Assembly: GCF_030028105.1 (NCBI RefSeq) | Contig: NC_092395.1 | Span: 27,124,424-27,188,423, forward strand | Length of the DNA: 64,000 bases | Direction of reading: 5' to 3' | Origin: Mobula birostris | Taxonomy: Eukaryota | Shown here: positions 25,201-28,200 of the stretch, piece after piece | Position numbering within the stretch: position 1 is the first letter of the stretch | How the letters are laid out: each line of letters starts with the position of its first letter | The notes under the pieces: model-generated | The model's input: the letters and a program-made list of their open reading frames with translations, nothing else | Told to the model about the DNA's origin: nothing | Database searches by the model: none | Translations under genes and position numbers: made by a program

Positions 25201-28200
25201 AAAGGAGTTCGCAATGTAACTTACAAAAACTGTAAAGGAATGGATGGGCTAAAGGCAGAGAAAGCTTCCGATGACGAAGGAGTCCTAGACAAAGGAGCAT
25301 AAGTACAGGATATGGGGCAGGCCATTTGGAAGTGAATTGAGAAGACATGGCTTCACTCTGACTTGCATCGGGAATGGACTCACAATTGCTGAGTTTATTC
25401 TTAACAAAAATATTATAGATTTTTGGATATTTGGGGATAGTGTTGGGAAAAGCACTTGTGTTGAAATATCAGCAGTATTTGATGAAAGGTGGAGCAGAGT
25501 ATTGTGGCAAGTTTATACTGCTGTTTCTTTGTTGCTATGAGGGTTCTCCGATTGCCTTCAAATTAGTACCAAATGAGAGAACAGATGAGGCCTGGTTCAA
25601 TATCTCAGCTGATGGCTCCAGTAGTGTACAGTTCCTGGGGACTGCACAAGGATTGACGCTCTGGTTGTCTAGTATTTGCTTTGAACTAGGCTGCAAATTC
25701 GAGGAAAGAATTGTCCACTGAACCACAGTTTCATTGTGGATAAATCCAAAATGAAGAACAAAATGGCAAGAGTATGGGGTTGAGTGGGATCCAGGATCAG
25801 CCAGGGTGTTAGAGTTATTTTTGGGTGATGGATATGGTATCTTTGATGTATTTGGAAGGCAATGAGAAAACTACATTCTCCTTCTTAACAAAATTAGTAT
25901 TGATATGGAGTAATAACAATGCATCTTATCTCAGTATTGGCTTCCTTTTGCTTTTAACCCATCCTCTTCCTGTATCCTACTCTTACACATCCACGTTTGT
26001 AGACCTTGTTTGGCTGTTGACTGTTGGGTGTGTGAGTTGAACTCAAATACTGATAGCCTGCTTAAAGTTTCACCCCCAGAGGAACCGGAAGTGAGGAGCG
26101 TCGCTGAGAAGCTGGCAAAATACGTTGCAGATGGGGGTCACGAGGTTGAAAAGCTTGCCATTCAGAACAACAGGGACAACCCTGCCTTCTCGTAAGTGTT
26201 GTTCATTCAGTAAGATAGCTGAAGTAAATCATGTACGACAACTATATTGAGTTTTCAGTTCCTGCCTGTGTATGTGCCACTGTTTTAGAGCTATTTCTTT
26301 CTGTAGTAATGCCAGAGCTCATAAATGCAATTTTCTGACTGCTCTCCAAAAAACCCGTAGATTAGTATAGTCAAACTGGTATCTTGATTTGTCCAGTCTG
26401 GACAGCCTTAAAAAAGAAAAGGGGTGCTGGTGGCTAAATCTCCCACATAAAACTTCAGTCATGTAATTTGTACATCTGTGTTACGCTGTAGGAAATTCCT
26501 GATTAATTCTTCTGTTCCTCTTTGCAGCTTCTTGTATGATCGCAACAGCCGGGCTTATCTTTATTACAAGAAAAAAGTAGCTGAAATCAAGCGAGAGAAA
26601 CAACTAAGTCAGCAAATACCCAAGCCACCAGAGCCAACTTCTGCATCTGTCCCAAAAGGTAGGAAATCGAAAAGAGATCATCTTTAAGATTTATCTTGTG
26701 TAAAAGATTTGGAATTGCAAAAAGTTCAAAAGTCAGGATTGGAGTCTAGACCAACAATATTTATCCTTTTTTCATTTTGTGGAGTTGGATTAAAACCTAG
26801 ATCCAGTGCTAGTTGACCTTTCTTTGAATTAACAGAATTTAGCACAGTTCCTACTGTCTGTTTAATAGCTGTCAAACATAAATCTTCTGAGATGGAAGCT
26901 GTGCTGATTGCCCTCTAGGGCAGTGCTAGATGAGCTCTACATGGTACTTAGCTCGTAGGAATGGATTATTGAGCGTCTGACATTTCAGTGTGCTGGAAAT
27001 CTTTATGATCCACCCTCTTGAATGTGAAAATATACAAAAATGCATTACATTCTCTGTATTTGTGGACTAAAATATCTGTTACTTTGGTTGTGAGATAGTT
27101 GTAGAAATCTTTCTCATACTGTGGGGATAACATGCAGGTTAAATTAGATTAGGGATGGACTGTTTTTTGTTTAATCTGTATGAGAATTGTACAGTGAAAA
27201 GTAAGGCCATATTTAAGCTCACCAGTCGTCACATTTCCTTCTTTCTCTGTTGCACTTCCTTTTACCCCACTGGAATATTTATCCCATTTTCTTTATGGAA
27301 ATCTTTTGAAATCAACTTCCACCACACTTCATTAAGTGCATTCCAGTTTACTATGGACTGCTTTTCTTTTTTTTAAAAATACTTCCTCTTGATTATTGAC
27401 CTTTCTGCCGTAATAAGCAATTTATGTTAGCAAAGCCGTTTATGATTTGGCACAAGCCTATCAAGTCTCTTAACTCCTGTGATCTAAGGAGGACAATCCC
27501 AGATTCTGAGACTAGATCACAGCATACATTATTTTGAAAGTGGATTGACCAAAATTGCATAGAAAGGGTACAGCCTGCCCCATACTTCATGCTCCTTTCT
27601 CCCTCTTCTGTATCATCAGCACATTTTGGACTATTCTGTTCTCTTCCTCTATATGCCTCAACCACACTCTGGTAGCAATTTCCGCTTTTGTAATAAAATT
27701 TCTCCCAAGTTCGTTATTTAATTTGCTTCTGAACTGCGTATACAGGTGGTAAAGGAATGTTGTGTGATATGATTGTACTTTAACATTGTCTATACTGCGC
27801 TATGGGAAGTTTCCTGAAGAGAATACCATTAAAACAGAGTGGCTTAAGAGTTGGATCTGTGGACAGTGTCTGTATTAAACCACTTGTGCGTGTGCTTTAA
27901 CCGGTGCTCTCCCTGTATCCCACTCTTACCCACCCACACCTGTAGACCTTGTTTGGCTGTTACTGTTGGGTGTGTGAGTTGAACTCAAGTACTGATAGCC
28001 TGCTTAAAGTTTCACCCCCAGAGGACCCAGAGCTCCGGAGTGTCATTGAGAAGTTGGCAAAGTTTGTGGCAGACGGGGGTCCAGATGTGGAAAAATTGGC
28101 CATTCAGGATAATCAAGATAATCCTGCCTTCTGGTGAGCACATTTCATTATGACATTTAAAATGGTAGTTATTTAAAACATTTTATTCCAATATGTATTG

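Follow-up and report, generated by a model that had tools for sequence, protein, structure and literature searches.

The window, i.e., the whole 64-kb stretch of Mobula birostris DNA analysed here, contains the ray SUGP1 gene. Shark and ray SUGP1 proteins are its top protein matches, with PF01805 and PF01585, and the gene encodes two SURP domains and a C-terminal G-patch in an orthologous exon layout. The exons are collinear with a stingray SUGP1 record from 13426 to 38525 (tblastn), and the 41-residue peptide encoded at 28012-28134 matches this same record at 100% identity, other rays and sharks being next best. As a correction to the original prediction, exon 6 starts at 26528. The features on which the argument relies are as follows (+, forward strand).

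20499-20744 (+): SUGP1 exon 4, with the intron 4 donor at 20744
25952-26083 (+): element copy 1, spanning the intron 4 end and the opening 16 nt of exon 5 (from the copy alignment)
25952-25958 (+): upstream branch-like motif whose A, at 25957, precedes the upstream acceptor by 46 nt
25980-25986 (+): second branch-like motif with its A at 25985, within the predicted stem and 18 nt before the upstream AG
25982-26036 (+): predicted hairpin enclosing the upstream AG; the prediction is firm in copy 1 and limited to the top in copy 2
26001-26002 (+): upstream (dead-end) acceptor AG of copy 1, at -65; human counterpart at -65 in Table S7 of PMC12434867, and elephant record P0037 joins exon 4 at the same offset
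26003-26067 (+): 65-nt extension of copy 1, with a stop at 26038-26040
26053 (+): branch-like A at -15 of copy 1, the best U2-pairing score (a simple in-house score) within 130 nt of the productive site
26066-26067 (+): productive acceptor AAG of copy 1, with a weak pyrimidine tract; same junction in shark and ray protein records
26068-26193 (+): exon 5, encoding the first half of SURP 1
26078-26079 (+): in-frame downstream acceptor CAG of copy 1, at +12, which would remove the four residues opening SURP 1
26528-26658 (+): exon 6, with the intron 6 donor at 26658
27895-28025 (+): element copy 2, the end of intron 6 and the first 16 nt of exon 7 (from the copy alignment)
27944-27945 (+): upstream (dead-end) acceptor AG of copy 2, at -64, with a stop at 27975-27977
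27995 (+): branch-like A at -15 of copy 2, again ranking best for U2 pairing within 130 nt
28008-28009 (+): productive acceptor AAG of copy 2
28010-28135 (+): exon 7, encoding the first half of SURP 2
28020-28021 (+): in-frame CAG of copy 2, at +12

Elsewhere in the gene, exon 4 has a tandem acceptor of its own at 20497-20501, two AGs 3 nt apart, the first of which is an AAG behind a strong tract. Several annotated SUGP1 isoforms (P0019, P0029, P0044, P0067 and P0079) contain SURP without a G-patch, which suggests a further truncating event later in the gene. The window also holds open frames at 56004-57104 (-), 36582-36932 (-), 8755-9006 (+), 23583-23948 (-), 47668-48159 (+) and 50716-51813 (+), the longest of 367 codons, which look like remnants of DNA transposons and LINEs.

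The ends of introns 4 and 6 carry two copies of a single element of about 130 nt. Across the intron part, 103 of 115 aligned bases are identical, as are 16/16 of the first exon bases, whereas the remaining exon sequence matches at 79 of 110 positions and its third codon positions at 18 of 36 (intron ends versus third codon positions, Fisher p 1.6e-6). The likeness ends 16 nt inside the exon, and the final 70 alignment columns hold one substitution and one gap. Global alignment of the two intron ends scores 190, as against 13-43 for six other SUGP1 intron ends; the other two splice-site flanks of the SURP duplication score 30 and 49, and 1000 shuffles reach at most 52. In a DNA search of the ray's own genome, copy 1 and copy 2 were the sole places among the matches listed. 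Conservation between the copies of this non-coding element exceeds the neutral expectation. Because exons 5 and 7 encode the first halves of both SURP domains, the twin elements arose together with the SURP duplication. Ser-Pro-Pro or Leu-Pro-Pro opens both SURP exons in 132 of the 138 records where the pattern finds both exons, and these records span sharks, teleosts, coelacanth, birds and mammals.

Within each copy the signals follow the same order: a branch-like motif, a C/T tract, the second branch-like motif, the upstream AG, stops in both shifted frames, the branch-like A at -15, the productive AAG and, behind a better tract, the CAG at +12. The donors at 20744 and 26658, the upstream and productive acceptor positions, the stops and the peptides given in the original prediction were all recomputed and are correct, and its extensions of 65 and 64 nt hold, with a frameshift and a stop in each copy. 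Its picture of two acceptors was too simple: both AGs are present, but further AGs lie at -31, -11 and +12 (the in-frame CAG) in both copies and at -20 in copy 2. The productive site, described there as having no pyrimidine tract, has a weak one, its 55% pyrimidine in -24..-5 being the lowest value among 12 acceptors scored, with six constitutive SUGP1 acceptors at 60-85%. The in-frame CAG at +12, the second branch-like motif and the predicted hairpin over the upstream AG are additions to that account. On the exon map each dead-end stop precedes the next junction by about 150 nt, at least 7 junctions lie downstream, and the upstream acceptor therefore introduces a PTC more than 50 nt ahead of a junction, as in AS-NMD. 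The productive site has the layout of SF3B1-mutant-type 3' sites, a weak tract and an AAG 12 nt upstream of a better-looking CAG. A U12-type intron or a USSE was rejected, since introns 4 and 6 both have ordinary GT donors and, by eye, tandem donor motifs are absent downstream of the activated site. The pyrimidine tracts of both copies contain a hexamer (25972-25977 and 27915-27920) that resembles the start of the minor-intron donor consensus.

The original prediction had staked itself on use of the upstream AG, and both upstream acceptors are used in human cells. According to Table S7 and the available text of PMC12434867, the PSI of an annotated human intron 4 acceptor at -65 rises from 0.084 in controls to 0.368 upon AQR knockdown, and that of an intron 6 acceptor at -58 from 0.017 to 0.158. 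The intron 6 product carries a PTC and undergoes emetine-sensitive decay (NMD), with 50-60% less protein after AQR knockdown (PMC12434867). The claim that upstream joining yields NMD substrates is thereby borne out for this human product and, in the ray, as far as the PTC layout of both copies. The intron 4 offset is 65 nt in human and ray; in intron 6 it is 58 versus 64 nt with the same frame shift, the human -58 AG being a candidate counterpart of the ray -64 AG. In hg19 the human junctions are chr19:19414722/19414657-19416657 for intron 4 and chr19:19413256/19413198-19414156 for intron 6. Since Table S7 shows both in use, the dead-end acceptors are real and already in print as single events.

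Comparison across species relied on protein records in which translation continues through the intron ends, i.e., automated gene models and transcript ORFs rather than DNA. The element is read through in 17 of 126 records (18 rows). These rows were chosen by a five-residue match, and that match is therefore no test by itself. Copy 1 accounts for 13 rows, including macaque, blue whale, elephant and two bird models, and copy 2 for 5, including camel and two birds. Among the 11 copy-1 rows that reach 23 residues or more, ten align collinearly with the ray and have an Arg codon at the position of the ray upstream AG, with the same 23-codon distance; a manakin model is the sole exception. Elephant isoform P0037 has this Arg because it is spliced at -65, with exon 4 joined exactly there. 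For copy 2, basking-shark isoform P0153 has its last ten codons nearly as in the ray, and in the skate transcript record P0136 introns 1-5 have been removed while intron 6 is retained. These records support conservation of the element, in both copies, from rays to mammals across jawed vertebrates, and in copy 1 the upstream AG and the 65-nt distance have been kept from ray to human. The four residues between the productive acceptor and the +12 CAG are missing at one or both SURPs in 7 of 126 records.

Several records depart from this pattern. Macaque P0019 and blue whale P0074 have an insertion of 65 residues where exon 4 meets exon 5, which points to another mammalian acceptor about 195 nt upstream. 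Frogs P0102, P0104 and P0112 have a SURP 2 without the four residues of the conserved exon start; copy 2 may have been lost there, or the +12 site may be used. In cichlid models P0109 and P0111 the residues before both SURP exons look like diverged read-through of the element, a weak hint that teleosts may keep it. In mammalian record P0126 copy 2 reads exactly as copy 1, which would reflect gene conversion or else a chimera of the assembly formed across shared bases; the latter may apply because copy 2 differs in length from copy 1 in camel and bird models. A conserved alternative frame through the -65 extension was rejected: the elephant model has one, and the ray frame stops just before the exon 4 donor. 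When truncated dead-end products were sought among shorter proteins with the exon 4 region, 4 of 11 candidates matched, none with the predicted extension; three continue past the exon 4 donor as if unspliced and one, a snake model, ends differently. Scanning metagenome contigs with the exon 8 peptide gave 590 pattern matches, of which 0 were confirmed.

We propose that in the duplicated element a frameshifting upstream acceptor competes with a weak productive one, and that SUGP1-DHX15 proofreading is the likely reader of this choice, which would amount to negative feedback on SUGP1; we give this reading about an even chance. The productive AAG would branch at -15, giving it a cramped layout with a weak tract, as in the cryptic sites suppressed by SUGP1. 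In SF3B1-mutant cryptic sites the branch-to-AG distance is 11-14 nt. The productive site is most likely a deliberately marginal substrate. When SUGP1-DHX15 activity is high, spliceosomes assembled on the -15 branch point would often be discarded, the intron then staying unspliced or falling back on the upstream branch point with its AG; in either case the RNA would be lost. When activity is low, or mutant SF3B1 is unable to bind SUGP1, the productive site would pass and more SUGP1 mRNA would be made. Simple arithmetic implies that two copies of the element would multiply the effect. Loss of AQR would make this same weak branch point prone to failure during activation, and this would account for the published shift.

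Some published data bear on this proposal. Introns that combine weak sites with multiple branch points are reported to be repressed by DHX15 and SUGP1 (bioRxiv 2022.11.14.516533), SF3B1/SUGP1 cryptic sites are found 10-30 nt upstream of a canonical AG (PMC7790757), and conserved unproductive splicing in genes for splicing factors frequently serves autoregulation (PMC4379411, PMC4109005, PMC11357089). The direction of the shift is a problem: in the standard model SUGP1 loss moves use to an upstream branch site (PMC11874996), opposite to the downstream shift that the feedback needs. The preference for proximal alternative sites after DHX15 loss (bioRxiv 2022.11.14.516533) also counts against it.

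SUGP1 is listed as differentially spliced in SF3B1-mutant myeloma; in the two SUGP1 rows consulted, of 11 in the supplement, exonic parts fall with log2FC of -2.62 and -1.89 and adjusted p of about 1e-8 and 6e-8 (PMC7927887). When the end of the first row is set to the intron 4 donor, the second row starts 101 nt from the exon 6 donor; because 101 nt is the length of mammalian exon 6, the rows correspond to the beginning of intron 4 and the final part of intron 5, and unspliced sequence is down about 6- and 4-fold. Such a drop in SF3B1 mutants is in the direction predicted by the feedback, and hints at it. Both rows are nevertheless unspliced parts and not the upstream AG, and one of them belongs to intron 5, where the element is absent. 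The rows could also reflect intronic polyadenylation, or a broad decrease in retained introns when SF3B1 is mutated. The available SF3B1-mutant supplements of PMC4743009 (2 files) and PMC4358997 (12 files) contain no SUGP1 row, six SUGP1 coordinates had 0 matches in the supplements of PMC9894173 (3 files), and SUGP1 does not appear among the 295 SF3B1-mutant events in PMC12434867, although these are induced sites.

What the element senses could be AQR and the intron-binding complex rather than SUGP1: upon slow catalytic activation the -15 branch would fail, the upstream AG would be used, SUGP1 would fall and early proofreading would loosen. AQR, which was not considered in the original prediction, is the only factor whose knockdown is shown to shift both upstream acceptors; SUGP1 intron 6 is the top hit among U2-associated factor genes in that knockdown, and according to its authors the intron 6 site is not induced by SF3B1 mutation (PMC12434867). 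AQR effects are very broad, with 2,407 cryptic 3' sites activated by knockdown (PMC12434867), more than 30,000 altered events in ENCODE (bioRxiv 807008) and thousands of events in the available text of bioRxiv 2025.07.16.665169, so the two SUGP1 hits may just show that weak sites fail first. The drop in unspliced parts in SF3B1 mutants is also left unexplained, and we regard this account as unlikely. The gate might instead be the RNA structure itself, a hairpin that hides the upstream AG and draws the far branch point and tract near the productive AG, its opening by a helicase, temperature or an RNA-binding protein turning the dead-end site on. In fold models of both copies the upstream AG is paired (unpaired probability 0.01-0.06), copy 1 has 21 pairs above 0.5, mostly above 0.8, and AQR is an RNA helicase. 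However, the folding z-scores are modest (-0.69, -2.20, -2.18 and -1.22), copy 2 in a 230 nt context keeps only five pairs around the AG, and the productive AG is mostly paired as well. Between the two ray copies, the sole sequences compared, there are no compensatory changes, and the records lacking the +12 residues fit a branch point at -15 better, which makes such a gate quite improbable. The SUGP1-DHX15, AQR-side and hairpin-gate readings are mutually compatible.

Alternatively, there may be no regulation at all: the productive acceptor would be dictated by the protein sequence and difficult to splice, conserved bases would serve as helper elements, gene conversion would keep the copies alike and upstream use would be noise. 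Just after the upstream AG the two ray copies are identical whereas copy 1 of ray, bird and mammal differs, as conversion would give; in P0126 copy 2 reads like copy 1, and the intron 6 site is used at less than 2% in control cells (PMC12434867). P0126, however, may be an assembly chimera, and the intron 4 site stands at 8% without an NMD block (PMC12434867). Furthermore, the likeness stops 16 nt into the exon, beyond which third positions match at 50% and the other flanks score like shuffles, and a harmful decoy should have vanished rather than keep its AG and 65-nt distance from ray to human. We therefore hold the absence of regulation to be improbable. An intron-encoded small RNA (a snoRNA or similar), duplicated along with the exon, deserves very little credence, even though the block is ~115 nt long, forms a hairpin in fold models and shows high identity, and AQR has been linked to intronic snoRNP assembly (a reference title in bioRxiv 2025.07.16.665169). 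Rfam gave 0 matches at the gathering score in the whole window and no C box was seen in the element sequence. Such an RNA would not be excisable from the lariat because the conserved block extends over the branch-like motif and the acceptor and 16 bases into the exon; a snoRNA or other Rfam family was rejected on the lack of an Rfam match and this overlap with the acceptor.

Returning to the SUGP1-DHX15 feedback, its broadest form would be a fidelity gauge at least as old as jawed vertebrates: SUGP1 mRNA would be made only via two 3' sites that imitate the cryptic sites rejected by SUGP1, and SUGP1 activity would set its own output. SF3B1-mutant cancers would then partly compensate by splicing more SUGP1, and the upstream acceptors would offer antisense handles to raise SUGP1 in them. 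We put this larger claim forward tentatively, at slightly less than an even chance. SUGP1 dose decides the extent of SF3B1-mutant-type missplicing in a cell: about 40% of such events recur when SUGP1 falls by 50-60%, and over-expression brings partial rescue (PMC12434867). How the SUGP1 level is set is not described in the literature searched. Among the available portions of the sources, autoregulation, feedback or SUGP1's own introns find no mention in bioRxiv 2022.11.13.516350 and 2022.11.14.516533, nor autoregulation or feedback in bioRxiv 2026.06.30.735655, nor SUGP1 mRNA or feedback in PMC11874996. A full-text literature search that left subscription journals outside, its hits judged by title and start of abstract, returned no paper on the duplicated element, its conservation or SUGP1 feedback. 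The acceptor switch provides a direct and cheap way to ask whether the proofreading stringency of the spliceosome is feedback-controlled; it re-reads a published 'cryptic' site as selected and names two sites for tuning SUGP1 output.

Known systems resemble this arrangement in part. In the U11-dependent USSE feedback of SNRNP48 and RNPC3, a spliceosome component is controlled by an activated upstream 3' site that yields an unstable mRNA, the USSE consisting of tandem minor-intron donor motifs downstream of that site. The ray copies, in contrast, each have one such-looking hexamer, upstream of the AG, and the tandem pair is not seen. BRD2 and BRD3 share paralogous domain-coding regions and an RNA structure proposed to gate an NMD event, although there the pairings are long-range, surround cassette exons and arose independently, whereas that of SUGP1 is a predicted local hairpin (PMC10789245). 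Poison control of SR proteins, SNRPB and SMNDC1 likewise involves deeply conserved non-coding sequence, a PTC isoform and NMD (PMC4379411, PMC4109005, PMC11357089). These genes use cassette exons, while in SUGP1 alternative branch points and 3' sites compete, an arrangement doubled by copying with a SURP exon, and its likely reader is a proofreading step rather than sequence-specific binding; SUGP1 autoregulation is a proposal. The cryptic sites of SF3B1 mutation and SUGP1 loss share the weak tract, the short branch-to-AG distance and an AG 10-30 nt upstream of a better-looking one, a geometry that is aberrant in the cancer targets and normal, productive and conserved in SUGP1 (PMC7790757, PMC11874996). 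The human intron 6 cryptic 3' site and the annotated intron 4 acceptor at -65 match the ray in gene, introns, the 65-nt intron 4 offset and the intron 6 frame shift, with a PTC and NMD (PMC12434867). In its available text, that paper presents the intron 6 site as one novel cryptic site out of thousands, covers intron 6 alone and makes no mention of conservation, duplication or feedback. The single human acceptor events are thus already known, as AQR-sensitive 'cryptic' sites; the duplication, the conservation and the feedback reading appear in none of the papers listed, as judged by title and start of abstract.
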